Below, in pieces: positions 8,522 through 27,866 of a stretch of DNA of 39,892 bases. Positions within the stretch are counted from its first letter, which is position 1. Each line of letters starts with the position of its first letter. Made by a program: the position numbers and the translations under genes. This DNA comes from a virus. The stretch lies in the UHGV virus genome UHGV-0038300. The stretch is one strand, 5' to 3'. Below the pieces are notes generated by a model. The model was not told the DNA's origin and ran no database searches. It saw nothing but the letters and a program-made list of their open reading frames with translations.

Positions 8522-8683
8522 ATGAAAAAAGCATTTGCTGCACTGTTCGTTTTGTTGTCTCTGGTAGCTTCAACTCAGGCCTTTGCCGGTCGTTGTCAGC
8601 ACGACAGCGATACTGCTGCAGACGGCTCCCGCTGCGGTGGGCGTTCTGCGGATTCCCGCCCGGGCGGCGGTGGCATTCGTTAA
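8522..8683 (+). CDS. Small secreted peptide candidate (53 aa; signal peptide then a Gly/Arg/Cys-rich tail)
   Basis: MKKAFAALFVLLSLVASTQAFA|GRC... has a classic Sec signal peptide; sigma70-like -35 TTGACG (8481-8486) and -10 TATAGA (8503-8508) upstream; the RBS is weak. Confidence 0.4.
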   Translation: MKKAFAALFVLLSLVASTQAFAGRCQHDSDTAADGSRCGGRSADSRPGGGGIR

Positions 8684-8705
8684 AAACAAGGCCGCGAAAG
8701 CGGCC
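8682..8705 (-). terminator. Rho-independent terminator closing the late structural operon
   Basis: GC stem ggccgc-gaaa-gcggcc (8690-8705) followed, on the minus strand, by a T-run (complement of aaaaa 8682-8686). Confidence 0.6.
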
Positions 8706-8719
8706 TGTGACATGTCACG
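8706..8719. repeat. Palindrome tGTGACATGTCACg, copy 1 of 3
   Basis: Perfect 12-bp palindrome GTGACATGTCAC immediately abutting the terminator stem; same core at 25588-25601 and 27853-27866. Confidence 0.7.
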
Positions 8720-8725
8720 CTCACG

Positions 8726-8866
8726 TTATGACAAGCCTATGTACCCTGCTACACCAGATAATATCAAAATAACTGCAACAGCAAATTCACCATCATCAAT
8801 GATACATTTACGGTTCATAACGCCAAGTGCAACAAGCGCAAACACAACAAGAATAAAAGCAATCAT
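8726..8866 (-). CDS. Small hydrophobic protein (46 aa, two predicted TM segments), not in the supplied ORF track
   Basis: Manual translation MIAFILVVFALVALGVMNRKCIIDDGEFAVAVILILSGVAGYIGLS*; RBS aaggatga before the ATG; lies between the last ejection-protein gene and the terminator. Confidence 0.4.
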   Translation of the reverse strand: MIAFILVVFALVALGVMNRKCIIDDGEFAVAVILILSGVAGYIGLS

Positions 8867-8875
8867 TTCTCATCC

Positions 8876-11350
8876 TTATTGCGGAGTGACATCCTGAGGT
8901 CGCCACCAGTATGTCTGGTTAAACTCTTTCTTCGAACGTTGCTCCATTTTACGCAAATAACCTGGTGAAAAATACTCCTGCATCTGGTTAAAGATCATGT
9001 GATCGAGAGCCGCCTTTAAGTACCAGAGATTCGCACCTGGCATCAGACCTTTCCCCAGCTTGACCAGATCACCACCAGTCTGCTCATTCTTCCCTTCCAC
9101 AGCATTTAACGGTATGCCCTGAGCAATCTTCACTACGTCATCAACCAGACCAGCTACCGGGCCAAGCATCGACGCCAGCGCGCCGCTTCCGTACCTAGTG
9201 TGATCTGACAATAAAAAGTCACCGTAAAGGCCAAGACCACCACCTTTCAGTAGAGCACCAAGCCAAAATTTAGCAGCATCTTCTCCTGTCATCTCACGAG
9301 GATTACGACCAGACGCAAGGTCGTTAAGTTGCTGCGACAAAGCGCCAAGAATGGTCGTACTGGCAATAAACGTCGCAATATATGCCGCACGCCCACCAGC
9401 AGACGGCATACCCATAGCGCGTGACCAGTGACGCATAACCACCGAGATAGGGAACGATTTAAACAGGAAAACACTTCTCGTTAATTCACCTTTCCATGTT
9501 CCACGCTGAATACCAGAACCGGTTATCAGTTGCTCACGTGCTCCCGGTGTAATAACAGCCATATCAACTTCTTCAGTTACGGCACCGAGCAGTTTACGCA
9601 TTGCCTCAAATTTCACGCGTTCAGACTCACCAAGATGTTTAACTGCTGAATCAGGGATACGCATAATGCTTTCCGGTGTCAGCATCGTATTATTACCGTT
9701 CCCCCAGTCCTCCTGTTGCGCCAGCTTCCATACGCTCCAGTCTGTGTCAGTAATCCCTTTGCTTTTCAGGATACGAAAATCAGAGTCATCGAGGCTACGA
9801 AGGTCTGGTGTCCGTGACACTACTTCTCCCAGGCTTCCCATCATGGTTACGCCATAGGCGCGCTTGTGCGCATCTGACCATGCTGTAAGCCCACTGGCAC
9901 GCATTACCGCCGTTGCCGCCCAACGAGACACTGACGGCCCCATATTATCCATCGCCCAGCGGTTAACGCTGCCAAGTAGAGATTCCATCGCCAGACCAGC
10001 GCGGCGCGCCCGCGCAAGTTCTGTACGGTTCGTTGGGTCCATAGCTTCAAGCTGGTTGCGGAATAACTGGTTCATTGGAAGGTTGGTAACCTTCGCAGAC
10101 AGATACATGGTTCCAAGATCAGAGAACGATGACAGCAACGCGGATCCGAGTCTGCTGGCAACCAGCCAGTTGCGGATATTGTCAGACCATCGCGCGATGT
10201 GCGGATTCGCTACAGGCTGTGTCTTTCCGGAAATAAAGTTGTACAGATTCTCTGTGTTGTTCGCCAGCCGCTCGACTTTACCGGTTTTACTCGGGTTAGC
10301 TGTTGCCGTTTCTGCCTTAACCTGATCAAGAAGGGAGCGGAAAACATGATCGGGGTTTGGACCATATGTTTCCACCAGAGCAATATCTTTACTGATACCT
10401 TCCAGGTGACCGACCATGATTTCCCATAGAGAGCGATCACCATAAAGTTGTTGATATTGGAGATAGGAATCTGCATCTTTGAAATGTATCTGTCGTGATG
10501 CATTACCACGGTTAGCACGTGCGCCGGAAATTCGCATTCCGGTATCAGTAAGCTTATTCAGCCCACCAGTAGCGATCGTGTTATAAGCCTCTCCAAGAAA
10601 TGCAGACAACTCGGCATCGTTCATCAGTTGTCCATCGGCTCGGGTATAATATTTGCGATCCAGCTTACCTATAACATCGCCAACCCACTTATCCTTTGAT
10701 ACCGCCCCAACCTTTTCCATAGAATGATGTTGAGGGATCCCCCAGTTTTCGAGATAGCCAATGTCCCCACCAGCATCATTAAACCGGCGGCGCAGCAGCT
10801 CTGTAACTTCTCTCCACGCCTTAGCACCTTTTCTTGCTTTAGCATTGCCAGTATTTTGCCCTCGCATTTCATATACCAGGTCACGCACGCCAGCTTCATC
10901 TTCAAACAGGCCAAAAAAGCGAGGATCAACTGCTTCAAATGCCTCTTGCAATTGACTCAATGCATAATCACGAGTGGCTTTTGTTCTGGACTCAACAGAG
11001 AGGAAATTCGATTTACCGTCTGCATTAAAAGCAATAGTACGGTTAAGAGCGCCAAGTTTCCCATCAGCCCCTTGATAGCTATTGATAAATTTATCCAATC
11101 TCTGACGTGCGGCTATAGTGAGGGCCACACGACGTTTCTTTAATGCCGCTTCTCGCTGTAATTCTTCAGATGCCAATTGTGCTGCACGATATAGCCGCTC
11201 TGATTCGGAAAGTTGTCTCCACGACATCGGGTCATCACGAGCAATGGAGCGCATATTTCGATAAATGCGGTCTTCAATGTTCTGTATTTCTCGCGCCGTT
11301 AACGTGCGCTGCGCCGCCTGCTGGACCGCTTGTATACATTCCTGTCTCAT
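8876..11350 (-). CDS. Large internal virion / DNA-ejection protein (gp16-position in a T7-like order)
   Basis: 824-aa ORF at the end of the structural operon after two other large ejection-type proteins; no enzymatic motif recognised. Confidence 0.6.
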   Translation of the reverse strand: MRQECIQAVQQAAQRTLTAREIQNIEDRIYRNMRSIARDDPMSWRQLSESERLYRAAQLASEELQREAALKKRRVALTIAARQRLDKFINSYQGADGKLGALNRTIAFNADGKSNFLSVESRTKATRDYALSQLQEAFEAVDPRFFGLFEDEAGVRDLVYEMRGQNTGNAKARKGAKAWREVTELLRRRFNDAGGDIGYLENWGIPQHHSMEKVGAVSKDKWVGDVIGKLDRKYYTRADGQLMNDAELSAFLGEAYNTIATGGLNKLTDTGMRISGARANRGNASRQIHFKDADSYLQYQQLYGDRSLWEIMVGHLEGISKDIALVETYGPNPDHVFRSLLDQVKAETATANPSKTGKVERLANNTENLYNFISGKTQPVANPHIARWSDNIRNWLVASRLGSALLSSFSDLGTMYLSAKVTNLPMNQLFRNQLEAMDPTNRTELARARRAGLAMESLLGSVNRWAMDNMGPSVSRWAATAVMRASGLTAWSDAHKRAYGVTMMGSLGEVVSRTPDLRSLDDSDFRILKSKGITDTDWSVWKLAQQEDWGNGNNTMLTPESIMRIPDSAVKHLGESERVKFEAMRKLLGAVTEEVDMAVITPGAREQLITGSGIQRGTWKGELTRSVFLFKSFPISVVMRHWSRAMGMPSAGGRAAYIATFIASTTILGALSQQLNDLASGRNPREMTGEDAAKFWLGALLKGGGLGLYGDFLLSDHTRYGSGALASMLGPVAGLVDDVVKIAQGIPLNAVEGKNEQTGGDLVKLGKGLMPGANLWYLKAALDHMIFNQMQEYFSPGYLRKMEQRSKKEFNQTYWWRPQDVTPQ

Positions 11351-11355
11351 TTAAT

Positions 11356-13158
11356 TTAACCTCTCAAGAAACACGCCACAGCGACATCAAACAGGCTTGA
11401 ATCCTGTATTGCCTGCTCACTTTCCCTGTTCGCTTCATCCAGTACTTCACGCGCGCTGCGCGATTGTGGATTACCATCATCATCCAGCACGGTGATTATC
11501 ATGTCAGGTGATTCAAGCAGCGAGTCTTCAGCTATGCGCAGATCAATATCTCCCGCCTGATCCGCCATCATTTTTTGTTCTGCCTGTTGCAATATTTTAT
11601 CAGGCTCAAAAGGAGCTACTTCGTCTGGCGTCCTGACCTCTGCTGTTTTATAGAATGAAACAGCCTGAGCATTAAGTTCACTTTCTGCCTGCTGTCTCCG
11701 AGCCAGTTCTGCTCGAGCTTCAAAAAACTGACCGCCAGGCTCGTGCGGTGCCAACGCGTTACGGGAAAATTCTAGGCGTTCTTGTGCCTGCCGGATTCGT
11801 TGATCAATATCGCGAAGTCTGGCCTGTTTATCTGATCGAGCACGAGACAAAGCTTTACCGCTACCGGTTGGATCTTCTGCAAGAATTTGTGCACGCTGTT
11901 CAGTGAGATTTTCAATAATTCGTTGGCTATTAGCGATTTCAGACTGGTAAACCTGTCTATCTCCACGCGGCAAAAGCTGCGCGGCCTGTTCTTCAAGCAA
12001 CCGATTTTCTATAGCGCGCGCCGTTACTCCATCATCTACAGATGACAGAGCCTCATTAACTGCCTGAGACAGCAGACTCTTGCGCCCAGGAATTTCACTG
12101 AAAGATGCAGACTCAACAATGCTGGCAACGTCTACAGGTCTCCCTTGGCTAACATCAGACATAGCTTTTCGCAGAGCCTGAATGTGAGAATTGCGCGAAA
12201 GCACGTTGATAGGCACGCCTGGCGCAATATCAATTTCAGCATGATGAGCGGCATTCGCCGCCAGTGCAGCATCGATATCAACTGGTGAAAAATTTGGTGC
12301 GTTTATAGACTCGCCGCGAGAGTTAATAAATCTGCCGACACCACCAAACGCCACCCCAAGAACAGCATCAATAGCAATTGCCTGTCGATCCAACACATCA
12401 TACTGGTTAGCCATTTCGCTATAGCCACCATCACGAAGCGTTTTTGCAGTAAGCCCACGCTGTGCCATACCGAACGCAATATTTGTACCTGCGGCATAGG
12501 CAATATCTGGCGTTGCACGTACTGCTGTTGCTGCGGCGCGTCGCACTGAACTCTCACCCGTCCGCGCAAGCTGAGCCGCCACACCTTCCGCCAGCGCACC
12601 ACCAGCACGTAACCCGAGGCTCATAGGGATCAGTGTTCCGGCACCAGCAGTAATGCCCTGCACTAATCCCGCTTCCTGCGCCGTCCTGAAATCAACACCC
12701 TGTGCTGTCAGCCGTTCAAACTCAGAAAAACCCTGTAGCGAAGTTACCGCCGCTGCACCTCCGACAGGACCACCGAGCGTTGTACCGACAACAGCCTGCC
12801 CGCCCATATCGAACAACCCATAAAGAACCTGCCCGGCGGTTCCGGTTGTCGCGGCATCAGGCGTCAGCCGCTTAACCTGCTGCTCTGCTAGTTTTCCCTG
12901 CTCAGCAATGTATGAAACTGAAGTGTCATTGAGCGAGGTGTTTTCGTTAACAAACTGAGCAATCGGGGATACGATTTTATCCATCCCTGCCCATAGCAAC
13001 TGATCTGGCTTTGCCACCAGTCCGGAGTACAAACCAGACAATGCCGCTCCTACAGCATTGTCGAAAAAACCAACATCGCTGTTAAAGCCAGCTGGATTTG
13101 ATGCTGCTTCGTCAAGCTGCTGATTCTGGTTTACTGGATTAAGGCCAAAGTAACTCAT
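11356..13158 (-). CDS. Internal virion / ejection protein (600 aa)
   Basis: Long Ala/Gly-rich ORF in the structural operon, tightly packed between two other large virion protein genes. Confidence 0.55.
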   Translation of the reverse strand: MSYFGLNPVNQNQQLDEAASNPAGFNSDVGFFDNAVGAALSGLYSGLVAKPDQLLWAGMDKIVSPIAQFVNENTSLNDTSVSYIAEQGKLAEQQVKRLTPDAATTGTAGQVLYGLFDMGGQAVVGTTLGGPVGGAAAVTSLQGFSEFERLTAQGVDFRTAQEAGLVQGITAGAGTLIPMSLGLRAGGALAEGVAAQLARTGESSVRRAAATAVRATPDIAYAAGTNIAFGMAQRGLTAKTLRDGGYSEMANQYDVLDRQAIAIDAVLGVAFGGVGRFINSRGESINAPNFSPVDIDAALAANAAHHAEIDIAPGVPINVLSRNSHIQALRKAMSDVSQGRPVDVASIVESASFSEIPGRKSLLSQAVNEALSSVDDGVTARAIENRLLEEQAAQLLPRGDRQVYQSEIANSQRIIENLTEQRAQILAEDPTGSGKALSRARSDKQARLRDIDQRIRQAQERLEFSRNALAPHEPGGQFFEARAELARRQQAESELNAQAVSFYKTAEVRTPDEVAPFEPDKILQQAEQKMMADQAGDIDLRIAEDSLLESPDMIITVLDDDGNPQSRSAREVLDEANRESEQAIQDSSLFDVAVACFLRG

Positions 13159-15668
13159 TGCGGAATATCTCCGGAGAATCTCTGACGCTTCTGTGTCAGA
13201 TTAAGAACAACGGGAGAACCATCATCTTTCAGCAGATAACCAGTACCAAGTTTCACCAGGTACTGACTATCGCCGTAACTTTGCAAACCATACTGACCAG
13301 GCGGTGTTTTTATCCCGGAGCCGACAACTTGTTCATTCCAAGCCTGATTAACCTGCTTATCGAATTGCTCTGCAGACATTCCCCACGGCAAAAGGACATT
13401 CCCCATTCCGTTATAGTCATGCACGCCACCTGTAGCTACGTTAACAGCCTGTTTCCAGACATCATTGTCAATTTCGCCTGATACCACGCCTTTTTTCGCC
13501 ATCACACCAGCGTAATAATCCTTTGCGATCTCGTATGCCATTGATGCCCCCTGAGCGTCACCAGCAAATGCATCCTTCACCATGTCAGAAAACTCAAGGC
13601 GAAGATCAGCATCTTTAGGCATCGGAATACCTTTCGCATCATCAGTACCTTTACGAGCCGCCGCGCCAGCAAGAATTGTCTGCGCAGCGGTTTCAGGAGA
13701 CACGGAAACATCCGGATTAAACCAGTTTTTTTCTGCCAAAATACCACCAGGCTTATCCATCAGTATCCCGGCAACGGCAGCAGATGGAGCGTTGGCACTG
13801 ATCTGCTGTAGTGCTGACATATACACCTGCCCACCACCAGTGCTCTGCCTGATGGTATCGAGATATGCTGCCTGTTGGGAAACTGGAGCATCACGAAAGA
13901 AAACACCGATCTGATTGGCCTCGTCTTTGGAAAAGAACGTCAGTGGAGTGCCATATGACTTAGCAAGGTCACTGACCTGAGCGGCACGCAAGGCAACGCT
14001 CTGTCCAAAGTTATCCTTATTGCTTATGTCGATAGGCTTTGCCTGTCCGGAGGCAAGAGAGAACTGCACAGGATCCGACTGCCGCTGCTTTATCACCTGA
14101 TTTGCAGCCGAAACAACGTTGTCATAAAGAGCTGCGCGAGACGCATAACCCTCCCCTGTCTCACCAGTATCCGGGCGTAATTGCTCAACATATGCTGTAA
14201 TGCTGCTTGTCGGCATGTTGCGGAAAGAGCCTATATACTGTCCGGCGATCTGCGTATTCTTAAAATCGGTATATCGCAGGTTTCCTTCTCTGACTCCATA
14301 AGCTGCAATAAAATCAGCCTCACCAGGTGGGTTAGGAAATTCAACGCCACGCATATACGCAGCCGTCGCATCGCGAACCTGGCTGTCAATCATCGTTTTA
14401 TATTCAGCCTGCTGCCGCCGACGCAGTTGATCCGCCTGCCGCATAAAACTTGCCTGAGCCTCAGGAGATGCCGCATCGAATGCTGCATTACCGGTATAGC
14501 GTTTGGTGTTGGTTGGAATTGTTGATAAACCAAGTGCTGCACTGACACCAGCAGTTAACTGCTGATCACTGTATGGCTGGCTACCGTTCTCATGATGGAT
14601 AATGGCTGCACAAAGCGCCTTCAGGGTATCAGGATTTGATGCATCGAGAGGCTCATCAGCAGAAACGCCAAGTTGTTCGCACACTGCTTTGATATACGAC
14701 ATAGTGTCATTTTTATCAGTAGGCGGTGCCCAGCGATTAATTATCTCGCTGACGGTATCAATACCCTGCCGCTGATACGACATCAGGTTCCGCCCTAATG
14801 CACGAATCCCGTGTTCAGGTGTTTCGAATTTAGCAAATCTACCATCATCACCGGTCTGGCCTACCCACGGATTAGTTTTGCTGTATTCGAGATTTCCGGG
14901 GTTATTGTTGCGTATGCCACGGACACGCTCGGAAGAGCCACTATCTGTTACAGCACGGCGAGCTCCAGCAGCAGTATCACTTAACTCGCCATTACTTTGG
15001 ATGAATGCGGTCGCATTGTTTGCCGACCACTGGGACAATGCTGCATCAGCAACCTTCTCTTTAAACTCGATTTTCTTGGCCTGTATTTGCTCGTCGCTCC
15101 AGCCATGTGCAGCACCGTACTCCTCAATTTGCTGGAAAGTTTGCTTATTAGCCAATACGTATGCGGCATTGTCGCCATACAATGCTGCGGCATTTTTACC
15201 ATTGTTCAGCAGCGTCGCCTGAAACTGACCTTCTTCGTAGGCATTAATTTGCCCTATCTCGTGCCGCCCGGCCTGCGTAGTGAACTGAATGCGCTGCTGC
15301 TGCGCCTGCTGCATGAAAGCATTACGAGCCTGTTCATCCGGCAGCGACATAGCCAGTTGTTCGACCTGAGCATCAAACTGCTGCGTATACTCATGGCCTT
15401 TTCCAATAGCATTTTTCCCTTTCAGGTTAAGCAAACCTGTTTCAGGGTTATTCAGCAGATCACTGCTTATCTGACTGAGGTTAAGAGATGCCTCCTGAGC
15501 CAGAGCGATATTGGCACGCTGTTTTGCCTGCCCCAAAACATCAATTGCCTCTGTCCCTGCCCGAACAAAAGCATCACCAATACCTGGCTGAGAAAACGTC
15601 TGCAAGCCTGCTGACTGAACTCCACGGCTCTCAACCTGGCGTCCGGATACTGTTGGTACGACTGGCAT
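13155..15668 (-). CDS. Internal virion / ejection protein with a possible peptidoglycan-hydrolase-like segment (gp15-position)
   Basis: Likely start is the ATG at 15668 (RBS ggagg; stop/start overlap with the upstream gene); contains a ...GIRNNNPGNLEY...W... segment of the kind seen in virion-associated wall-degrading domains (tentative). Confidence 0.55.
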   Translation of the reverse strand: MPVVPTVSGRQVESRGVQSAGLQTFSQPGIGDAFVRAGTEAIDVLGQAKQRANIALAQEASLNLSQISSDLLNNPETGLLNLKGKNAIGKGHEYTQQFDAQVEQLAMSLPDEQARNAFMQQAQQQRIQFTTQAGRHEIGQINAYEEGQFQATLLNNGKNAAALYGDNAAYVLANKQTFQQIEEYGAAHGWSDEQIQAKKIEFKEKVADAALSQWSANNATAFIQSNGELSDTAAGARRAVTDSGSSERVRGIRNNNPGNLEYSKTNPWVGQTGDDGRFAKFETPEHGIRALGRNLMSYQRQGIDTVSEIINRWAPPTDKNDTMSYIKAVCEQLGVSADEPLDASNPDTLKALCAAIIHHENGSQPYSDQQLTAGVSAALGLSTIPTNTKRYTGNAAFDAASPEAQASFMRQADQLRRRQQAEYKTMIDSQVRDATAAYMRGVEFPNPPGEADFIAAYGVREGNLRYTDFKNTQIAGQYIGSFRNMPTSSITAYVEQLRPDTGETGEGYASRAALYDNVVSAANQVIKQRQSDPVQFSLASGQAKPIDISNKDNFGQSVALRAAQVSDLAKSYGTPLTFFSKDEANQIGVFFRDAPVSQQAAYLDTIRQSTGGGQVYMSALQQISANAPSAAVAGILMDKPGGILAEKNWFNPDVSVSPETAAQTILAGAAARKGTDDAKGIPMPKDADLRLEFSDMVKDAFAGDAQGASMAYEIAKDYYAGVMAKKGVVSGEIDNDVWKQAVNVATGGVHDYNGMGNVLLPWGMSAEQFDKQVNQAWNEQVVGSGIKTPPGQYGLQSYGDSQYLVKLGTGYLLKDDGSPVVLNLTQKRQRFSGDIPQ

Positions 15669-16213
15669 TATAATCCTCCGGGTAATCTGGTTCCTGCTGC
15701 TGCCCCGATTGGCGCAGGGGTGCTTTGAGTAAACGGACTCCACGTCCCACCAAACATCTGGTACGCACCGTATGCCTTCAGAGGCTCAGTGAGCAATGTT
15801 GTTGCTGCTCCCACATTCCCCTGTTTACGGGCTGAACTGGCTTCTGCTTTATAGTTGGCAGCCTGAACCTGATAACCGTAAGCCTCGCGTTGCGCGTTAT
15901 TCACCGTCGTCAGCGAATCAAGAGCGCCAAACTGGGCAGTGTCGCCAAATATATCCAGCGCGTTACCTGTAGATAAATCAGCGCCGGTAGCCCCCATTGT
16001 CGCTGCCTGTGTACCAAGCCGCTGTCGGGTCTCTCTGCGCCGTTGCTCAGCTTCAGCGTTACCCCTGTTTATTGCATCATTTGCCTGAGCTGTGGCTATA
16101 TCTGCGTTCGCTTCTGCAACCTTCGAGGCATACTTTCCCTGTTGGTACTGGGTGTATGCCTGAATGCCACTCATGACGAGCATTGCGCCACCAGCAATAA
16201 CCGGATCGCACAT
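15668..16213 (-). CDS. Virion structural protein (gp14-position), hypothetical
   Basis: 181 aa with a hydrophobic N-terminus; position in the structural operon. Confidence 0.45.
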   Translation of the reverse strand: MCDPVIAGGAMLVMSGIQAYTQYQQGKYASKVAEANADIATAQANDAINRGNAEAEQRRRETRQRLGTQAATMGATGADLSTGNALDIFGDTAQFGALDSLTTVNNAQREAYGYQVQAANYKAEASSARKQGNVGAATTLLTEPLKAYGAYQMFGGTWSPFTQSTPAPIGAAAGTRLPGGL

Positions 16214-16677
16214 TATTTTCTCTCCATGTGAAATCTGTGGAAATTAAGACCAAGTGCACCATAAGGCGCGGCTTCTTCAAGCCTGAACCCAAGCCAGTGC
16301 AGCCATGCTTTGGCAACATGGTTTCGCTCGTCGACGTAGTTTTCCAGGCGCGGATAAACTGCCAGCATCTGCTGCAATACAGGGCGGCAGTGGCGAAGAA
16401 ATGTCTTCTGATATTTTTCAATACGGCTTGTCCCGACCAGCCAGGGCGTACCATTGCCACCGATCATTGACGCCGGAGATACACCAAACATGGTTACCAG
16501 TTCTCCGTTCGCGAACCCTGACCAGGCCATAGTCGCAGTGCGCAGACCAACGCGCAGCGCATCTTCGGTAGTCATCAGCGATACCGCATATAGTTCGTCA
16601 ATATCAGCCTGACGAACATCCGGCAAAATCATCTGAAGATGCTCTTCGGTAGCGGGAATAATTTGAATATCGATCAT
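16213..16677 (-). CDS. Virion structural protein (gp13-position), hypothetical
   Basis: 154 aa; overlapping stop/start with flanking structural genes. Confidence 0.45.
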   Translation of the reverse strand: MIDIQIIPATEEHLQMILPDVRQADIDELYAVSLMTTEDALRVGLRTATMAWSGFANGELVTMFGVSPASMIGGNGTPWLVGTSRIEKYQKTFLRHCRPVLQQMLAVYPRLENYVDERNHVAKAWLHWLGFRLEEAAPYGALGLNFHRFHMERK

Positions 16678-19753: not shown

Positions 19754-20082
19754 TACTCACCCCCATTGCCGTACAGAGTTTCAGCCGCTGATTTTTCTAC
19801 ATCCCCGGAAACAGGAGCGATCGCCATATCAGTGATCTGCAGATCGACGCTGCGATTAACACCATCGTCAGTTTCTCTGGCAGACAGGCCTCGAATAACA
19901 GCCTTTGCAGTTATCATCACTTCTGTTCCGACGCCCTGAGGTTGCGCCTTCAGCTTATTCAATGTGTCGTTATTAAGAGTGATGCACAGCCCCCACGGGT
20001 ATTCATCGCGAGTTCTGGTTTCTCCGCTCTCATCCTGGTAGCTGTCAGTGCCGGTTTTGAGGTTTACGAGTTCCATATACAC
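19753..20082 (-). CDS. Hypothetical head/neck protein
   Basis: 109-aa ORF within the structural operon with tight packing. Confidence 0.4.
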   Translation of the reverse strand: MYMELVNLKTGTDSYQDESGETRTRDEYPWGLCITLNNDTLNKLKAQPQGVGTEVMITAKAVIRGLSARETDDGVNRSVDLQITDMAIAPVSGDVEKSAAETLYGNGGE

Positions 20083-20126
20083 TCCTGCAATAAAGGGGCC
20101 GAAGCCCCTTGTCTGATTCGCGAGGC

Positions 20127-20471
20127 TTACACGCCCAGTTCTTTACGCTTATCTGCGATCTTCTCGCGGAGCGTTTCGGCTTTGGCGTTATGGTGTGGCT
20201 TCTCGTTAAAGAGCAATTCGTACTCTTCACGGAGCTTATCCAGTTCACCATCATCTGACACATCGTTGATGATTTTGGTGCTGGTTGCTGCCATAGACAC
20301 CTTTCCTGCTACCTTTGCTTTTGCCTGTCTGGCTGCATCGTTAACAGGTTCCAGTGCGCTACCAGGCTCACCTTCGTATTCGATTTCTGCCCCCTCCGGC
20401 CACAGTGTGTTATGGATATGAGAGAGGCGCAGAACGCGGTATCTTGGTTTCTCACCTGACATCGAAATCAC
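20127..20471 (-). CDS. Hypothetical structural protein
   Basis: 114-aa ORF within the structural operon. Confidence 0.4.
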   Translation of the reverse strand: MISMSGEKPRYRVLRLSHIHNTLWPEGAEIEYEGEPGSALEPVNDAARQAKAKVAGKVSMAATSTKIINDVSDDGELDKLREEYELLFNEKPHHNAKAETLREKIADKRKELGV

Positions 20472-20472
20472 C

Positions 20473-20910
20473 TTAACCAGTTACTTTTGAGCGGATCGGG
20501 TACGGCGTATTGGCATCAACATCAAGATTGATACCCGCAGTGAATTTGCCAGCCGTTAGTGGGCCAGTTGCGACGGAGTAGTTAACACGCAGATATCGCT
20601 GAACACCGGCAGGCACCTTTGCAGAAACAACTCGTTTACCTGCTGTCAGGGTAGCCTTTGCCAGTGCGCCACTATCATAAATAGTGGACCATGAGCTGTT
20701 ATTCTCACTCGTCTGCAACTGGATGTTTACAGTTGCCTCACCACTTGCCGTGGCGGCTTCGTTAACCAGCGCCCAAAACTCAAGCGGGTAACCCACGCCG
20801 ATATCGCGACGATTTCCATCAATTGGACCTAGATCGATTACGTCAGTAGAAGCCGCGGTATCAGTTACCGCCTGTGCTTCGGAGAACATCAACAGTTTGT
20901 CGGTGATCAT
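20473..20910 (-). CDS. Possible capsid decoration / minor capsid protein
   Basis: 145-aa ORF immediately downstream of the major capsid gene. Confidence 0.4.
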   Translation of the reverse strand: MITDKLLMFSEAQAVTDTAASTDVIDLGPIDGNRRDIGVGYPLEFWALVNEAATASGEATVNIQLQTSENNSSWSTIYDSGALAKATLTAGKRVVSAKVPAGVQRYLRVNYSVATGPLTAGKFTAGINLDVDANTPYPIRSKVTG

Positions 20911-20961
20911 CTTCTTTCTCCATTAGTGGGTCTGTTACGACCCACTGGTTAATAACAGGCG

Positions 20962-21954
20962 TTACACCACACGGGCTTCTGTTTCCAGAAGCGCATCAGT
21001 TTCACGGATTGGTACACCACGGAATGAAGTCCACCACTCGCCTTCTGTCTCTTTTACGCTGATCGCCAGAGATGTTTTCTCCAGAGATTGCAGATCAAGA
21101 GCCTGGCCTACAGTGCGGTTCATGTAGAACACCGGGCGACCCATTCCACGGTTTGGAATGCGATGCAGTGCTTTAACCATCAACTTCGCAATATTTGCGG
21201 CAGAGGAAGGTTCTGAAAGATTGCTGACATCGATGTTTGCAATGCGAACAACATAACGCCAGTCACGCAGAGCAAGTCCGTTGTCCCATTTGTAATGGGT
21301 GCGATAGCCTTCGTACTTGCCGCCATTAGCATCTTCCAGTGTCACCTGGCCTTTATCTTCCATCTGGATGCCAGCCTTCTGCCCTTTCGGGAAGATGCCA
21401 TGCACGGTGTTTTCGCCCCACACCACTAACCAGATTGAGGTGTTATCTGTACCCGTGCCACCAGCATCAATGATGTTCTGAGCATTACCCGCAGACAGGC
21501 TGGAATAGCGGGAGGACAGTCCCATAAACTGCTGAGGGTTAACGCTGGAATCACCATAAAACAGCGTCTGCGCCATCTGCTGATTCATCGCTTCAATAAA
21601 TGCGCGGTCTTCAGACAGGCGGAATTCAGCGGTATTGCCGTTCAGATCAGCCAGTGACTTATCGACTTCAGCATAGGTTTCCAGCATGCCAACGGAATCG
21701 GTTACCTGCACTGTGGTTGATTTGCTTGGCTGTACGCCATAGTTCAGCAAACGCCAGGTAGCTGAAGGTAAACCAGAACGAATGGTGGTTCGGTGTCCGG
21801 TAGGAAGGTTCCCTTCGACAAAAGGCATATCCTGAAGGATCGGGTTAGTTTGACCGAGAAGCTCGATAATCTTATCGACTTTCCCGTTTGGATCGACGCG
21901 CTTACCCCAGTCAGCCAGCGTTAGCGCAGTTAAGCCTTTAACAGCCATTGTCAT
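20962..21954 (-). CDS. Major capsid protein
   Basis: 330-aa ORF following the scaffold gene; size, position and composition typical of HK97-fold major capsid proteins of podoviruses. Confidence 0.75.
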   Translation of the reverse strand: MTMAVKGLTALTLADWGKRVDPNGKVDKIIELLGQTNPILQDMPFVEGNLPTGHRTTIRSGLPSATWRLLNYGVQPSKSTTVQVTDSVGMLETYAEVDKSLADLNGNTAEFRLSEDRAFIEAMNQQMAQTLFYGDSSVNPQQFMGLSSRYSSLSAGNAQNIIDAGGTGTDNTSIWLVVWGENTVHGIFPKGQKAGIQMEDKGQVTLEDANGGKYEGYRTHYKWDNGLALRDWRYVVRIANIDVSNLSEPSSAANIAKLMVKALHRIPNRGMGRPVFYMNRTVGQALDLQSLEKTSLAISVKETEGEWWTSFRGVPIRETDALLETEARVV

Positions 21955-21962
21955 TTCCTCTC

Positions 21963-22664
21963 TTATTTGCCATAGAGCACTTCGGCCGCACTACGCTGGC
22001 CTTCATTACCACCGGTGACCATGCCATCTTCAGACATCGCCTTTCCGATTTTCACGAACATTTTGACCAGATCAGGGTGATTACCCAGCCCGGTGGTGTT
22101 CAGATATTCTTTGAGTTCAGGTGTCCCGAACTGGTCAAGCGCACGCTGTGCGGCGCTAAGGTTAGAAATCAACTTGTCGCCACCGATTTCTTTGTCAGCT
22201 TTTACATCCGCAGCCCACTGCTCGGTTGTTTTCTGCCAGGCTTCTGCCTGGCGCTGCTGAACACCTGCCAGAATCTTCGGATAAGCATCAACCAGCTTTT
22301 GCGCTTGCTCGTTGGTCAGGTTAAGTTCTCGCGCCACCGGCTCGAATTCCTTCAACGCTTCTGTATCCAGCTCTACGCCTTCGGCAGCCTGAAACTCGTA
22401 CTTCTCAGGCGCACCCTCTGGTTTATCGCCGTCCTTTTTTTCATCCTGCTTATCGTTTTCAGGCTTTTTGTCATCAGCAGGTTTATCGCCATCAGCAACA
22501 GGTTGTGGCTTATCACCTTCCTGTTGTGATGGATCACCAACTGGAGCAGGGTTATCACCTGCAGGCGCTGACGGTTCTGACGCAGCCGGAGCTGCTCCAC
22601 CATCGACTGGTTGCTCATTGCAAAGACGGCGATACAGCAAACGCTCAAATAAATTCATGATCAC
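21963..22664 (-). CDS. Scaffolding protein
   Basis: Acidic, Pro/Ala/Asp/Lys-rich low-complexity N-terminal half and helical C-terminal half, between the portal and capsid genes. Confidence 0.65.
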   Translation of the reverse strand: MIMNLFERLLYRRLCNEQPVDGGAAPAASEPSAPAGDNPAPVGDPSQQEGDKPQPVADGDKPADDKKPENDKQDEKKDGDKPEGAPEKYEFQAAEGVELDTEALKEFEPVARELNLTNEQAQKLVDAYPKILAGVQQRQAEAWQKTTEQWAADVKADKEIGGDKLISNLSAAQRALDQFGTPELKEYLNTTGLGNHPDLVKMFVKIGKAMSEDGMVTGGNEGQRSAAEVLYGK

Positions 22665-22957
22665 TCCTGTTCACTGGCCTCTTTGGCCATCTTCAAATAC
22701 TGTTCAGGGCAATGCGCCATAACGCGCTGAAACAGTTCCAGCGCCAGATTGCGTTGCCCCTCATTAAATGCCATTGCCATAGCGTCCATCGGTGAGATAG
22801 CGGAAAACACACGGCCTTTCTCCAGCACAGACCAGACAACGCGACGCCCCTGTTCACTGCTCATGACAAAGCGAATGTCATCAATTTCACGCTGTGCCAT
22901 GTCACGTTGCGTACGGGCGTTTTCTTCTTTCAGTTGATCGTCTTCGTAATCTGTCAT
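22661..22957 (-). CDS. Small hypothetical head protein
   Basis: 98-aa ORF overlapping the portal stop and scaffold start. Confidence 0.45.
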   Translation of the reverse strand: MTDYEDDQLKEENARTQRDMAQREIDDIRFVMSSEQGRRVVWSVLEKGRVFSAISPMDAMAMAFNEGQRNLALELFQRVMAHCPEQYLKMAKEASEQE

Positions 22958-24633
22958 TGTGATTGCCCACCCTGACCACTAACTGCATTCGCCATAGCTG
23001 ACAACACACTCGGATCCGAAGTTTTAGCTTCGCTTAGCGTCTTGGCCCCCTGTGCCGCCGCCATCCCCATCGCCATCATTTGTTGCTGCTGTTGTTGCTG
23101 TGCCCGTTGCTGGCGAGCCTGCTCAACCTGTTCCTGCGGAACAATGACGGTTGGAGACACTCCGGACATATCAGCGAATGCATCGATCGCCTGATCAACG
23201 TTGAGTTTGTCGAGAGCTTCTGGTTTCGCTTGCGCAAGTTGACCAATGAAGTTGACCGTAGACGCCAGACTGGACAAGCCGATAGACTTCTGCGCCTGAG
23301 CCATGACGGAAATGTATTCGACCTTCAGGGGCATACCTTCCATCACGTCTGGCGGTGGCGGCAGCATGTTTTTACGCACCATCATCGAGAAAGAGCGATC
23401 AATGAGAGGATTAAGACATTCGTCGTTCAGGCGCTCCAGAACCGGCCCCAACATCAGAAGTTTTTCTTCTTTCATTTCGATCACCGCTTCCACAGGCATC
23501 GAGCGGGTATTGATGTTCTGCAACATCATGAACAGATCGACAAAGTAGGCGCTGTTAATGATTTGACGAGTGTCCTGAATGTCTGCCACCAAATCTGCTG
23601 TACTGGGGTTAACCAGATAAGCAGGCCTGAAACCATCCTGACCAGTAATCTGATCGATATACGTGATGTCGCCAGGAAGAAGGGAGGCACGCTGATTCTT
23701 GAGGGAAGTCGGAGCAACCATCGGCGGATTGGTGGCTTTATCAATCAACTGCGACTTGCGCTTCTGGAGAAGCTGCAATGCCTTAACAGGTCCAAGCGCC
23801 AGCATACCCGGGCATGATGATCCATAAACATCTTCGCCGTTAACTTCCCAGCGCGGAGCCATAATTGGAAACTCATCGAATCCTGACTCACGCAACAACT
23901 TGTCGTTATCGCCACCAACCTCGTAATAAACCGATTTGAATGGCTTGTTCTTGCTATCCAGCTTCGATGTATCGCGGTCAATGTTCGGGTAAACCGAATG
24001 CATCACTTCAATCCACTTCTCGTAGGTGCCGCTTTCCCACATGCTTTTTACGGATTCGCTGACGTTATTTAGCCCGAACTCCTGAACAAGCTGACGAACA
24101 GTCATAGAGAACTTACGAAAACATGTGTCCACACTGCCACGAGGTGAGTTAGCCAGGTAGTAACTACCTATCGGGAATGGCATTGTGCGAATTATGTCCT
24201 CGTCATCCTCCAGCACCGCCATTGCACCAGTGCTGTATGTGCCGAGGCTTCCGTATAACTGCGGAAGAGACTGGTAGAGATTCGACTTATTGAACATATC
24301 GTTCATGCGGTTCTGAACTGCCTCAAGCCACAACTTAACAGGGCCATAATCCATCATTTCAGGATCTGGCGTAGCCAGGCGAAACCACGGACGCACGGGG
24401 CTTGTGATGCCTGACATCATGCCGCTGGCGAGAGTGCGCGCCGCCATAGTCCCGGTCGAATCAATAATGCGTGTATTGCGCCGATCGTTACGGTTGGCCT
24501 CAGAAGTCAGAAAGCGGGAACCACGCGGGTTGATGTAATCACTCAACTCGCGCCAGTGCGGCTCGAACGACTGACGCTCGCTTTCAAGTTGTGCGAACTG
24601 TTTGTTCAATCGCTCTTTAGTTGTTTCCGCCAT
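22954..24633 (-). CDS. Portal protein
   Basis: 559-aa ORF upstream of scaffold and capsid with a Gln-rich C-terminal tail; size and position as for podovirus portal proteins. Confidence 0.75.
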   Translation of the reverse strand: MAETTKERLNKQFAQLESERQSFEPHWRELSDYINPRGSRFLTSEANRNDRRNTRIIDSTGTMAARTLASGMMSGITSPVRPWFRLATPDPEMMDYGPVKLWLEAVQNRMNDMFNKSNLYQSLPQLYGSLGTYSTGAMAVLEDDEDIIRTMPFPIGSYYLANSPRGSVDTCFRKFSMTVRQLVQEFGLNNVSESVKSMWESGTYEKWIEVMHSVYPNIDRDTSKLDSKNKPFKSVYYEVGGDNDKLLRESGFDEFPIMAPRWEVNGEDVYGSSCPGMLALGPVKALQLLQKRKSQLIDKATNPPMVAPTSLKNQRASLLPGDITYIDQITGQDGFRPAYLVNPSTADLVADIQDTRQIINSAYFVDLFMMLQNINTRSMPVEAVIEMKEEKLLMLGPVLERLNDECLNPLIDRSFSMMVRKNMLPPPPDVMEGMPLKVEYISVMAQAQKSIGLSSLASTVNFIGQLAQAKPEALDKLNVDQAIDAFADMSGVSPTVIVPQEQVEQARQQRAQQQQQQQMMAMGMAAAQGAKTLSEAKTSDPSVLSAMANAVSGQGGQSQ

Positions 24634-24647
24634 TTCAATGACTCCGG

Positions 24648-24854
24648 TTACTGACCAAGCAGCGTTTTACCGCTGGTATTAGCGGTTGATGTGTCGCCCT
24701 GAGAACCGGTAAGCAGCGTAGAACTACGACCAGCAGCAGCGCGACGGCGACGTGTTTCTTCGTCGCGGGCATCAACAACGGCGGCATCCTGCTCCTGTGG
24801 TGCTGCCTGAACTTCTGGTGTTGCAGGCACTGATGGTGAGCTACCCATGCACAT
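24648..24854 (-). CDS. Small hypothetical protein upstream of the portal gene
   Basis: 68-aa ORF with a GGAG RBS 8 nt upstream; low-complexity sequence, so weak. Confidence 0.3.
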   Translation of the reverse strand: MCMGSSPSVPATPEVQAAPQEQDAAVVDARDEETRRRRAAAGRSSTLLTGSQGDTSTANTSGKTLLGQ

Positions 24855-24943
24855 ATCAATGACTCCGTACGCAATTAAATTATTACCAATTTAACCACAT
24901 ATGATTTATTTATCGTAGACAGTTGACATTTAACGCACGAATT

Positions 24944-24960
24944 ATTACCTTTCAGGTAAG
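24944..24960. promoter_or_regulatory. 17-bp operator-like site ATTACC-TTTCA-GGTAAG
   Basis: Member of the dispersed site family; 16 bp downstream of a TTGACA hexamer (24923-24928) in the non-coding region upstream of the tRNA. Confidence 0.5.
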
Positions 24961-25281
24961 CAAAGAGTTCATTCCGGTTATTAACCTGACTGGCTTGTCG
25001 TTAAATTGAACAGGTGGGGTGAGCTTTTATTTTGAGCAGTACGGTGTATGGCACATGCGCCGATAGCGGTCTGGATACGTTTAAGGGGCACCCTCCCTTG
25101 CTCGGGCAAACGAACCAGGTAGCCGGAATGTGCAAGTCGAGCGGTTTTATTCCGCGCACGGGGATTCACCATCCCGGCGATTCGGTGTGACACCTCGGAA
25201 GAGACGAGGGTACAACGATGAGAGCATTTATGGAGCCGCGACAAAGTGTGGCGCCTTAACAGGCTAAGTGCTCTCAGCGTT

Positions 25282-25358
25282 GTGGCATTAGCTCAGTCGG
25301 ACAGAGCAACCGCCTTCTAAGCGGTTGGTCGCAGGTTCGAATCCTGCATGCCACGCCA
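25282..25358 (+). tRNA. tRNA-Arg (anticodon UCU, reads AGA), 77 nt with encoded CCA
   Basis: Hand-folded cloverleaf: acceptor gtggcat/atgccac, D-stem gctc/gagc, anticodon stem accgc/gcggt with loop cTTCTAa (U33, A37), T-arm gcagg-TTCGAAT-cctgc, discriminator G, CCA. Confidence 0.85.
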
Positions 25359-25587
25359 GAATCACGCCTAAGGACCGTGATGCCAGAAGTTCCAGGTGCT
25401 TGGCGGTGATGGTTTCCCTTGAGGGACTATCACCGCCCTTTTTACAGCAGGACGCCATTGCGATGACTTCATGCTGTAAACCCGTACAGCCACGGAAGGC
25501 AAAACTCATTGCTTCCAGTTCGCCCGGTTCGCCGGGCATTTTTTTAAGGTGTGAATCATGAAATACGAATTCGATGGATTTTGATGT

Positions 25588-25601
25588 CGTGACATGTCAC
25601 A
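25588..25601. repeat. Palindrome cGTGACATGTCACa, copy 2 of 3
   Basis: Same 12-bp core as at 8706-8719 and 27853-27866; directly next to a terminator hairpin. Confidence 0.7.
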
Positions 25602-25604
25602 AAC

Positions 25605-25631
25605 AGCCAGCCGATGAGCTGGCTTTGTTTT
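25605..25631. terminator. Bidirectional rho-independent terminator between tRNA-Arg and the large terminase gene
   Basis: Stem agccagc (25605-25611) / gctggct (25618-25624) followed by ttgtttt; T-rich on the opposite strand as well. Confidence 0.6.
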
Positions 25632-25674
25632 ATCCTCATCAGAGGATATCAACGACATTATCCCCTCAAGCGGA

Positions 25675-27150
25675 TTAAGCATAGGGATCGTAATCTGTGA
25701 TGGCCTTGCCTTGCTGGTTCTGCTGCCCGGGAATTCGCAGACGCTTCGACACAGGGAACGCAAACGTCAGCAGTAGCGCATCGCCTTTACCCGGCGAACG
25801 CCCAAGCCGCTCCTTGATATCCTCCTTCGGTTCGATAACGATTTTACCGTCCACGCGAACTTTGTACTCTGCCGCCGACAGGTCGTCTGCAGTTTCCTGG
25901 TCATCCAGCATTCCGCCCAGCCTCAGCCATGTCTTACATGAGTTGAACATCTCCCCACGCTTGTTAAGCATCTGCGGGTCAGTGGACGCACCGCCGAACG
26001 GAACAAGTTGCCATGTACGCCCCCAGCCATCACCGATTGACTTCAAACCGGTTCCGTAACCGAAGTCGATGAACACCGCGTCAGCCTGATACTGGTCTTC
26101 AAAGTCAGCGATACGCTTCGCCATAATCAGATCGTCGGTAGTCTTGTTGCCAGTCCACAGCACCTTACTGTGTAGCCCCTGCCGCAGGTATATCACCGCG
26201 TCATCAACGCCTGAATATGCCGGGTCAACACCGATTATCACCGGAGCATGCGCCACCTGCGCAGCGGTTACCACCCGTTTCATTGCCTCATCAGTAAGAC
26301 CGGTAGGGATAAACTGCAATTCAGATGCATCAGGGAATATGCCGCGCACACGGATTTTAACGAAGTCGCTGTCTTCCCCGTAGTCATCAACCCATTTCTG
26401 CAACTGCTGTTTGTTAGTGCCTTCCACCGTCCGGCTGTCAATCTGCGCACACTTCCAGCGGTGTTTATATTTGCGGAAACATTCGCGGAAACGCCCGGTG
26501 TTACGTGTAGGGTTTCCGAACGCCACCCAGATAATCTCAGTGTCTTCGTCCGTAAGCGCACCCTCAGAAACTTCCCATACCAGATCCGCAATGTTCGACG
26601 CTTCATCGAATACCACGATGATGCGTTTGCGCTCGTTGTGTAGTCCGGCGAATGCCTCAGTGTTGTGCTCAGACCAGGGGATTGCGTCAGCTCGCCACCG
26701 CTTGTCGTGCCCAGGATCATTGCTGTACATCGCGGTAGCGGTACAGGTAAACCAGTCTTTCGTGATAGCAAGGTTCGACCACTTGATAATTTCCGGCCAG
26801 GTCTTCGTTCGTAGCTGGTTGTCGGTGTTGGCGGTCACCACGACCTTACAATCCTCGCAAGTGGACATGCCCCAGTTGATCAGCATTGAGATGAATGCGG
26901 ATTTACCAATACCGTGACCAGAAGCGCGTGCCAGCATAAGCGGCTGATAGCGCGTCTCTGGATTCTGCAGGTGATCACGTATCTCTCGGAACGCATCAGC
27001 CTGCCACTGACGTGGGCCGGTAGCATGTGCCAGTTCAGTCCCCTCTTCCCCCCACGGGAACGCATAGAGGGCATAGCCAAGCGGATCGTGAGTGAACCCT
27101 GCAATATCCTCGATCAACTGCTCTTCAGGAGATAACGCTGTATCTGTCAC
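25675..27150 (-). CDS. Terminase large subunit
   Basis: 491 aa with a Walker-A-like GHGIGKS ATPase motif in the N-terminal part, immediately downstream of the small-terminase gene; the nuclease domain was not individually identified. Confidence 0.85.
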   Translation of the reverse strand: MTDTALSPEEQLIEDIAGFTHDPLGYALYAFPWGEEGTELAHATGPRQWQADAFREIRDHLQNPETRYQPLMLARASGHGIGKSAFISMLINWGMSTCEDCKVVVTANTDNQLRTKTWPEIIKWSNLAITKDWFTCTATAMYSNDPGHDKRWRADAIPWSEHNTEAFAGLHNERKRIIVVFDEASNIADLVWEVSEGALTDEDTEIIWVAFGNPTRNTGRFRECFRKYKHRWKCAQIDSRTVEGTNKQQLQKWVDDYGEDSDFVKIRVRGIFPDASELQFIPTGLTDEAMKRVVTAAQVAHAPVIIGVDPAYSGVDDAVIYLRQGLHSKVLWTGNKTTDDLIMAKRIADFEDQYQADAVFIDFGYGTGLKSIGDGWGRTWQLVPFGGASTDPQMLNKRGEMFNSCKTWLRLGGMLDDQETADDLSAAEYKVRVDGKIVIEPKEDIKERLGRSPGKGDALLLTFAFPVSKRLRIPGQQNQQGKAITDYDPYA

Positions 27151-27746
27151 TGATTACCATCCTGACGTTCTTTGAGTCGCTTCCTGGCTGCTGCTATGCG
27201 ATCAGCAATTGTCACATTCACATTAACATCCAGACGTTCTTTGAACGCGTTGACATCAACATGCTTACCAATCAGCTCAAGGTTCTTCACCTTGTCAGGC
27301 CATTTAATTTTTTTGAGGATTGTCTCTATCGAATCCTCGTTCATGTTCATGATGGTCGATGACAGATCAAAGCCACTAAGCGTAGTGCGCCAGATTTTCG
27401 GCCACTCACGGATTGGTTTAAGGCTCCCATCGTCGTTGAGGATGTCGATCACGTCCATCTGGTCGATCTCCACCAGGCGCATGAGAACGTAATCAGCACT
27501 GACGCGCATTCGTTTGTTGCGCTCCTCCATCAACTCGGCAATCCGTTTTTGAATGCGTTCATCGCGCATCATGACACTGGCTTTAACTGCCGCTGTATTT
27601 GGGGAGAATCCTGCGTTAATCGCTGCCTGAGTCTGGTTTTCAGGCGTTTTGATGTATGACTGGCAATAAGCCTCCTGCATTGCTGTTAGTGGCTTAAATT
27701 GCGTTGATTTGCGTTTATAGGTTTTAGGTTCAGCAGGCATCATAAC
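27147..27746 (-). CDS. Terminase small subunit
   Basis: HTH-containing N-terminus (...LTAMQEAYCQSYIKTPENQTQAAINAGFS...) typical of small terminases; the listed ORF extends to a TTG at 27821, but an ATG near 27746 with an upstream RBS is more likely. Confidence 0.7.
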   Translation of the reverse strand, partial: VMMPAEPKTYKRKSTQFKPLTAMQEAYCQSYIKTPENQTQAAINAGFSPNTAAVKASVMMRDERIQKRIAELMEERNKRMRVSADYVLMRLVEIDQMDVIDILNDDGSLKPIREWPKIWRTTLSGFDLSSTIMNMNEDSIETILKKIKWPDKVKNLELIGKHVDVNAFKERLDVNVNVTIADRIAAARKRLKERQDGNQ

Positions 27747-27786
27747 CACCGTGGTAATAGTTACCGTTGTGGTAATAGTACCATGC

Positions 27787-27812
27787 AAAATAAAGCCGCC
27801 ATAGTTGGCGGC
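27787..27812 (-). terminator. Terminator-like hairpin in the leader of the late operon, upstream of the small terminase
   Basis: On the minus strand: gccgcc-aactat-ggcggc followed by tttatttt. Confidence 0.45.
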
Positions 27813-27852
27813 AGTATTCAAAACCCATCAAATTCATCATGCATAATCTACT

Positions 27853-27866
27853 CGTGACATGTCACA
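27853..27866. repeat. Palindrome cGTGACATGTCACa, copy 3 of 3
   Basis: Same core as the other two copies; overlaps the stop codon of the 27862-28203 gene, about 40 bp upstream of the late-leader hairpin. Confidence 0.7.

Follow-up and report, generated by a model that had tools for sequence, protein, structure and literature searches.

The virus genome UHGV-0038300 (39,892 nucleotides, analysed at its full length and referred to here as the window) is an Escherichia coli prophage resembling epsilon15 and phiV10 (genus Uetakevirus), and it contains three copies of a 12-base palindrome, GTGACATGTCAC, at the ends of transcription units. Its terminase region is 97-99% identical to that of phiV10-type Escherichia phages and approximately 81% identical to that of Salmonella phage epsilon15; DNA similar to this region is present in 1674 of 5426 complete E. 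coli genomes, a number that partly reflects mere terminase homology. Epsilon15/phiV10-like prophages are very common. The late genes of the window are situated on the minus strand in the order terS, terL, an insert of approximately 1 kb, gp3 and the portal gene, and onward to a small membrane-protein open reading frame (ORF). The first palindrome (site 1) is located behind this last late ORF, and the second (site 2) behind terL, on which a plus-strand unit of cargo genes and a tRNA converges. The third (site 3) is located at the end of the p55-family gene, the last early-right gene, which encodes a protein of 112 residues with a cysteine cluster and precedes terS (Table 1).

Exact matches to GTGACATGTCAC occur in the whole window at these three sites only. 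The initial annotation, whose coordinates comprise the palindrome plus one flanking base per side, had reported three copies with conserved flanks, and this is confirmed: all three share the 14-mer CGTGACATGTCACA, read on the minus strand at site 1 and on the plus strand at sites 2 and 3. Its claim that such a recurrence should not arise by chance holds as well, with three matches observed and none expected, as none of 100 dinucleotide-preserving shuffles of the window gave any match. The degenerate form GTGACNNGTCAC returns the same three sites and nothing else, against 0.01 expected. At each site, the order of elements is a stop codon, a gap of 0-7 nucleotides (nt), the palindrome, a hairpin and a T-run. 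All three neighbouring terminators are consensus matches, consisting of a G+C-rich hairpin and a T-run, and the orthologous places are annotated as terminators in phiV10 and epsilon15; together with the gene assignments, they bear out the suggested pairing of every copy with a terminator at an operon boundary. The hairpin at site 1 also closes the convergent plus-strand operon, and the terminator behind terL at site 2, with the T-run TTGTTTT on the plus strand, is annotated as bidirectional in phiV10. Beyond the terminators of sites 1 and 2, there is only antisense DNA of the convergent unit. A one-mismatch copy, GTGCCATGTCAC, is found in the coding sequence of a small ORF next to the portal gene; its half-site is broken and it is not counted. 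This copy is present in phiV10 (GTGACATGGCAC on the late-gene strand), absent from epsilon15, and probably a coding coincidence.

The non-random sites are conserved to the base across genera, while their flanks diverge. In five whole genomes, those of phiV10, epsilon15, Tyrion (Enterobacter), BUCT711 (Klebsiella) and BUCT554 (Enterobacter), sites 1 and 3 are present throughout and site 2 in all except BUCT711; the count in related phages thus gives the same three places in four of these phages and two places in BUCT711. The site 1 palindrome is unchanged in all five, and its terminator stem is invariant with a variable loop (six phages). Around site 2, TTGTGACATGTCACG is invariant in nine phages and prophages, with a constant palindrome-hairpin spacing of 4 nt, and at site 3, a single base is changed in each of phiV10 and BUCT554. 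The distance from palindrome to hairpin in the relatives is 0-3 nt at site 1 (11 nt in BUCT711) and 4 nt at site 2, whereas at site 3, the terminator lies 19-53 nt past the palindrome in many relatives and is replaced by unrelated DNA in the others. When each site is aligned with 60-nt flanks, no block other than the palindrome and the stems of the terminators is invariant, and the mean column identity is 49-60%. Such invariance amid diverging flanks points to a selected, sequence-specific and putatively protein-binding site, as the initial annotation had suspected.

The palindrome is also tied to one gene. A scan of one genome per bacterial species (GTDB) gave 21 loci with homologues of the 112-residue protein at 54-86% identity, situated in Citrobacter, Pseudocitrobacter, Pantoea, Klebsiella, Enterobacter, Rahnella, Xenorhabdus, Providencia and others. 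The motif GTGACnnGTCAC encloses the stop codon of the homologue in 10 of these loci, starts 6-8 nt later in three more (13 of 21), and lies 81-205 nt downstream of the gene in two further ones (15 of 21 within 205 nt); it is absent from the gene end in the other six. A second copy is located behind terL in eight of the loci. The stop codon is TGA and lies inside the palindrome in the window, epsilon15, Tyrion, BUCT711, BUCT554 and the 10 GTDB loci, and equally in phages of other types. The gene of N15 gp46 (35% identity) ends in GTGACTGGTCAC and that of phiKO2 gp45 likewise; the homologue gene in the P2-like Yersinia phage vB_YenM_56.17 (41% identity), located after gpA, ends in GTGACGCGTCAC, and that in Vibrio phage 10N.237 (36% identity) in GTGACAGGTCAC. 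N15, phiKO2 and Vibrio phage K308 each contain three copies of GTGAC-N2-GTCAC, where approximately 0.04 are expected per genome. Those of N15 and phiKO2 occupy orthologous positions, one at the gp46/gp45 stop codon, one within the repA gene, and one ahead of the terminator in the leader region of the icd/antA/antB antirepressor operon. The half-sites are fixed, the central dinucleotide differs by clade, and nothing else is conserved in the DNA around the gene end. Gene and site, with the stop codon inside the site, would therefore seem to be inherited as one module. Protein family and motif occur in company in no fewer than four unrelated types of phage.

Members of the family (PHROG 536, including N15 gp46, epsilon15 gp49 and phiV10 p55) fall into more than 700 sequence clusters, and they coexist with genuine Q genes, which are located beside the homologues in two of the loci (L134 and L135) and are present in N15 and phiKO2. 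In lambdoid prophages of Pantoea and Citrobacter, the homologue gene is located in the nin region upstream of Q, and in those of Citrobacter and Enterobacter, it follows a DNA methyltransferase gene. The palindrome and the terminator are followed in the lambdoid carriers by further nin-region ORFs (e.g., NinB and RusA, named by eye from the sequence) and a Q-like gene. The IMG/VR collection was searched with the 14-mer CGTGACATGTCACA; these matches were selected on the motif and form a catalogue of contexts only, not an unbiased sample of classes. Among at least 135 palindromes in at least 120 loci, at least 41 mark the end of a p55 gene, at least 15 follow terL and at least 13 close the late operon, and the remaining 66 among the matches listed fall in 42 unrelated flank groups.

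Table 1. Palindromes, terminators, genes and other features of the window and of the compared loci.
Feature	Position	Strand	Remarks
Palindrome, site 1	8707-8718		7 nt past stop of last late ORF; abuts terminator hairpin directly
Palindrome, site 2	25589-25600		4 nt past stop of 8-codon plus-strand stub ORF; 4 nt before bidirectional terminator behind terL
Palindrome, site 3	27854-27865		TGA stop (27864-27862, minus) of p55-family gene inside palindrome
Intrinsic terminator, end of late structural operon	8681-8706	minus	hairpin 8706-8689, then TGTTTTT; abuts site 1
Bidirectional terminator, plus-strand cargo/tRNA unit versus terL	25605-25632	plus	hairpin 25605-25624, then TTGTTTTA
Intrinsic terminator between p55-family gene and terS	27787-27812	minus	hairpin 27812-27795, then TTTATTTT; 41 nt downstream of site 3
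Last late ORF	8726-8866	minus	46-aa membrane protein, homologue of phiV10 p21; ends just before site 1
terL	25675-27150	minus
terS	27147-27743/27821	minus
p55-family "Cys-cluster" gene	27862-28200	minus	112 aa; last early-right gene; phiV10 p55 / epsilon15 gp49 / N15 gp46; PHROG 536
tRNA-Arg (anticodon TCT)	25282-25358	plus	in insert of approximately 1 kb between terL and gp3
Other features of the terL-gp3 insert	25402-25437, 25522-25537, 25559-25585	plus	two further terminators; stub ORF included
One-mismatch palindrome copy	22894-22905		in small ORF next to portal gene
18-mer GAATTYGATGGRTTTTGA	25567-25584	plus	adjoins site 2
18-mer GAATTYGATGGRTTTTGA	27818-27835	minus	adjoins site 3
GGTAATAGT/GGTAATAAT repeats	27751-27779		directly upstream of terS; two 11-nt direct repeats 18 nt apart
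GGTAATAGT/GGTAATAAT repeats	24879-24887, 24941-24949		upstream of gp3
GGTAATAGT/GGTAATAAT repeats	32786-33554		immunity region
N15 (L149) sites	28550, 33237, 39269		GTGAC(CA/TG)GTCAC
phiKO2 (L152) sites	9510, 14390, 20267		GTGAC(CA/TG)GTCAC
Promoter 6 nt past palindrome, BUCT711-type relatives	L006 (BUCT711) 363-431; L007 (BUCT554) 8189-8259; L009, L010, L027, L038, L128, L129		overlapped by LexA box
YdaT-like gene palindromes	L140, L142, L143 (Providencia) ~6138; L148 (Rouxiella) 5732; IMG/VR L023, L032, L039, L058, L121
Q-gene palindromes, one group	L014, L019, L024, L076, L117, L126
Q-gene palindromes, other group	L061, L063, L069, L071, L080, L083, L114, L116, L123
Half-site arrays	L026 ~10700-10900; L074 ~1880-1960; L112 ~10800-10900; L045; L055

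The p55-family protein carries the PHROG label "transcriptional regulator", for which no experimental basis was found, and a literature search found no study of the family. The published work on vB_EcoP_ZX5 is confined to the repressor, the antirepressor and the integrase, and a proteomics paper on telomere phages names a "gp46" in lysogens, which is at most a putative counterpart of N15 gp46. In an alignment of enterobacterial and N15-type members, Cys 79, 82, 91 and 99 are conserved, three being invariant and one nearly so, together with an RRPGR..Y..E...LIR core. The AlphaFold model, with a predicted local distance difference test (pLDDT) score of 67 overall and 70-85 in the core, consists of a basic N-terminal helix, an extended segment and two helices. 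The predicted core of a beta-strand followed by two helices is that of the ribbon-helix-helix (RHH) fold. With moderate confidence, the N-terminal half is modelled as an RHH DNA-binding domain, and the four-cysteine C-terminal tail is probably zinc-binding. In NCBIfam, no curated RHH family matches significantly; a YbfE-like match, seen in 4 of 23 members, scores 14 bits (E = 0.05), below the cut-off of 62.

The comparative evidence points to this protein, already named as a candidate binder in the initial annotation, as the ligand of the palindromes. They are quite probably its operators, with the consensus YGTGAC-AT-GTCACR and, more generally, GTGAC-N2-GTCAC. Two 5-bp half-sites constitute the kind of site that RHH dimers recognise. 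Known RHH repressor-operator pairs (P22 Arc/Mnt, CopG, MetJ, ParD/TacA-type antitoxins) resemble the predicted pair in the small size of the protein, in its core matching the beta-alpha-alpha fold, and in the short palindromic sites with two 5-bp half-sites; here, the protein is phage-encoded and several sites exist per genome. A further likeness to Arc and Mnt is the N15/phiKO2 site in the leader of the antirepressor operon, as an antirepressor operon is the kind of target that both proteins control in P22. Compared with these pairs, the p55 family lacks a significant curated-family match and possesses an extra conserved Cys4 tail, and its sites are located at the 3' ends of genes beside terminators, not over promoters, one of them overlapping the regulator's own stop codon.

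In this placement, the closest counterpart is LacI, which regulates its own synthesis by a roadblock at O3, an operator at the 3' end of lacI; the lacI transcripts are thereby cut short (PMC3711431). When a DNA-bound protein stops the polymerase before a stop codon, transcript release and trans-translation follow (PMC13584721). As in LacI, the regulator gene terminates in its own putative operator, both in the window and in its relatives. The differences are the other protein fold, the conservation of the arrangement in many phage lineages and its repetition at other operon ends. By analogy, the system would work most like an RHH repressor-operator pair with an operator placed as in LacI-O3.

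The mode of action of such operators is more tentative. A dimer bound to each palindrome would halt RNA polymerase during elongation where the unit ends, just before the intrinsic terminator, and would thereby form a boundary or insulator. At site 3, early-right transcription would be kept out of terS and terL, and the polymerase stalled before the protein gene's own stop codon would provide an autoregulation similar to that at LacI-O3. At site 2, the plus-strand cargo/tRNA unit would be stopped from running antisense into terL, and at site 1, late transcription would be stopped from running antisense into the convergent operon. The mechanism is constrained in two respects: at each site, transcription runs through the stop codon, the palindrome and the terminator in turn, and past the terminators of two sites, only antisense DNA of a convergent unit follows. 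A roadblock fits all three positions.

Several points weigh against this reading. As each site is immediately followed by a terminator, a roadblock seems superfluous unless the incoming transcription is antiterminated, which is putative. If the late genes were transcribed from a single promoter before terS, a block at site 2 would likewise impair transcription of the portal and head genes; a separate promoter for gp3 and the portal gene would remove this objection, but is hinted at only by the GGTAATA repeats, similar to repressor operators, before terS and gp3 and in the immunity region. Site 2 is missing in BUCT711 and in the Rahnella prophages. No motif is present at the gene end in the homologues of the Providencia, Rouxiella, Samsonia and Escherichia sp. 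E1V33 loci and of an Aeromonas phage, and no palindrome lies within 23 kb of the Aeromonas phage homologue. Furthermore, neither Foldseek with the AlphaFold model nor the Pfam and PDB sequence searches returned anything significant for the protein. Taken alone, the roadblock or insulator mechanism is held to have rather less than an even chance, whereas operators of an RHH-Cys4 protein forming a roadblock boundary are, as a whole, the best explanation, with a probability of roughly 0.55.

The initial annotation had proposed a binding site for a late activator or antiterminator, at which a phage protein, p55 or another, would activate a late promoter or give read-through of the terminator, as Q does at qut. 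The gene order at site 3 is indeed that of Q-qut-tR', with a small Cys-containing regulator gene, a DNA site past its stop, a short leader, a terminator, and then terS and the late genes, and the palindrome always precedes the hairpin in the direction of the T-run. However, the resemblance is confined to this gene order. The protein has no similarity to the Q families (Pfam: no match to PF06530, PF03589 and relatives). N15, phiKO2 and the lambdoid carriers of the protein each possess a Q of their own as well as a late promoter, which in N15 and phiKO2 is mapped and located elsewhere. Sites 1 and 2, with only antisense DNA past their terminators, have no downstream gene that would require antitermination, and the other N15 and phiKO2 copies, inside repA and in the antirepressor-operon leader, are not at late operons. 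Two promoter-like sequences speak in favour of an activator, but neither is a conserved companion of the site. At site 3, a weak match (9/12) uses GTGACA as the -35 element, followed by 18 nt, CATGAT and then the terminator, and the relatives carry unrelated sequence after the site. In the BUCT711-type phages, a strong promoter is located 6 nt past the site, but this is the LexA-box promoter of a UmuD-like moron. RHH proteins are typically repressors, which likewise counts against an activator or antiterminator. The observation of the initial annotation is thus confirmed and its interpretation partly supported, a dedicated late-regulator role being unlikely.

Less probable again is a module-boundary or recombination element, in which the palindrome and the terminator would serve as a junction for cassette exchange, either as the target of a recombinase or nuclease or as a mere patch of homology. 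The palindrome sits exactly between conserved and variable sequence, the variable parts being the cargo genes at site 2, the genes that end the late operon at site 1 and whatever follows p55 at site 3; moreover, p03 is gone from the window while the site and the terminator are retained. Yet a conserved functional site will always resemble a junction when the DNA around it evolves fast, the motif has no recombinase or nuclease associated with it, 12 bases are too few for homologous exchange, and neither the tight link to one small protein of DNA-binding type nor the sites in repA of N15 and phiKO2 would be explained. A host protein as the ligand, in place of a phage protein, is if anything rated a little lower, even though the half-site GTGAC is unchanged in phages of E. 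coli, Klebsiella, Yersinia and Vibrio and the palindrome is found as well in genes of phages that have no p55 homologue close by (in two Q-gene families and a YdaT-like gene). The nucleotide-level tie to the stop codon of one phage gene family in four unrelated phage types would be hard to explain in this way, and no paper containing the palindrome sequence was found in the literature searched. No enterobacterial regulator is known to have this operator. The processing site offered as another option in the initial annotation belongs to the RNA-level explanations, in which the transcribed palindrome would act as a processing site, 3'-end stabiliser or terminator modulator; it is the least probable alternative. 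The sites are transcribed at the 3' ends of three units and abut terminator hairpins, and the epsilon15 record annotates RNase III sites elsewhere in that intergenic region, but the palindrome is invariant without compensatory changes in all alignments, the half-sites stay constant while the central dinucleotide varies by clade, and the palindrome alone forms at best a 4-bp hairpin, with predicted folds inconsistent beyond the terminators.

If the p55-family protein is a boundary or roadblock factor bound to these operators, this would explain why the sites hug terminators, and an autoregulation similar to that at LacI-O3 would be conserved across temperate phages of podo-, sipho- and myovirus type; a compact 12-bp insulator part would also become available for synthetic biology. 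It is possible, though rather doubtful, that an RHH protein with a zinc-binding tail and a palindrome at its stop codon constitute a widespread phage module for protein-dependent transcription boundaries. In such a module, the extra copies before terminators at operon ends would let one early protein set or switch the ends of units, by roadblock or by antitermination dependent on a DNA site. This would set it apart from N, Q, put and Ogr as a way of controlling phage gene expression. The principle of a regulator and its operator is ordinary; not described so far are the conserved fusion of the putative operator with the regulator's stop codon, its placement against terminators, and its spread across unrelated temperate phages. 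An orphan protein family is hereby paired with a precise DNA motif and exact genomic positions, so that its function is directly testable.

Other assignments of the motif were considered and rejected. A genome end, cos or pac site is excluded, as the start of the phiV10 record is arbitrary, having merely been opened after the p55 stop codon inside site 3, and the start of the Tyrion record splits the palindrome likewise; N15 is a cos phage and its motif is far from cos. The repressor sites annotated in epsilon15 follow a different motif, GGTAATA..TTACC repeats. A sigma-70 promoter with GTGACA as the -35 element is the one weak match at site 3 only, and it is not conserved. The partition palindrome (SopB-type) of N15 and phiKO2 is also different: the annotated phiKO2 sites read GTGCGACCACGGTCGCAC, and N15 has four close matches to it at other positions. 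The element of the zinc-finger late activators of Ogr/Delta type in P2 is TGT-N12-ACA upstream of late promoters; the present motif differs, and no conserved promoter is located downstream of the sites.

Around the sites, several minor features of the prophage and its relatives were observed. In the terL-gp3 insert, two further plus-strand terminators accompany the tRNA-Arg gene. The phiV10 p03 gene (Sf6 gene 66 / N4 gp49-like) is replaced in the window by the 8-codon stub MKYEFDGF* right before site 2, indicating that the cargo gene has been deleted while the palindrome and the terminator have been retained. The 18-mer GAATTYGATGGRTTTTGA, which encodes ...EFDGF*, adjoins both site 2 and site 3 (expected 0). 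The copy at site 3 looks like the 3' remnant of a 70-aa ORF ending in ...DEFDGL, which is intact between p55 and terS in other prophages, e.g., L012. In the BUCT711-type relatives, the promoter past the palindrome is near-consensus (TTGACT, 15 nt, TATACT) and is overlapped by a perfect LexA box, TACTGTTTAAATATACAGTA. The ORF behind it is approximately 110 aa long, starts with MGFPSPAADY and is UmuD-like by eye, with no match in Pfam; this unit between p55 and terS is an SOS-controlled moron. Equivalents of the GGTAATAGT/GGTAATAAT repeats are annotated in the epsilon15 record as repressor-binding sites, and their location before terS and gp3 suggests a direct action of the prophage repressor at separate promoters for late genes.

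Palindromes also exist away from the p55 gene. Where the gene of the p55 homologue does not end in a palindrome, the prophage carries an exact GTGACATGTCAC near the 3' end of a YdaT-like gene (CII-analogue, PF06254), in which it encodes R-D-M-S and is kept though the adjacent codons differ between genera. The two largest other groups among the IMG/VR matches listed are located inside Q antiterminator genes of two families, spanning codons 2-6 (MRDMSQ) in the PF06530 genes and the zinc-finger motif (VTCHSC) in the PF03589 genes. Most of these loci have no p55 gene nearby, and the Q-gene palindromes may be due to chance in heavily sampled genes or to cross-talk between prophages. In addition, high-G+C phage contigs, in which no p55 homologue was detected, contain arrays of 6-10 GTGAC/GTCAC half-sites around an exact palindrome. 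One of these arrays (L026) is situated inside a DUF1376 (YdaU-like replication) gene and recalls origin iterons in a replication gene.

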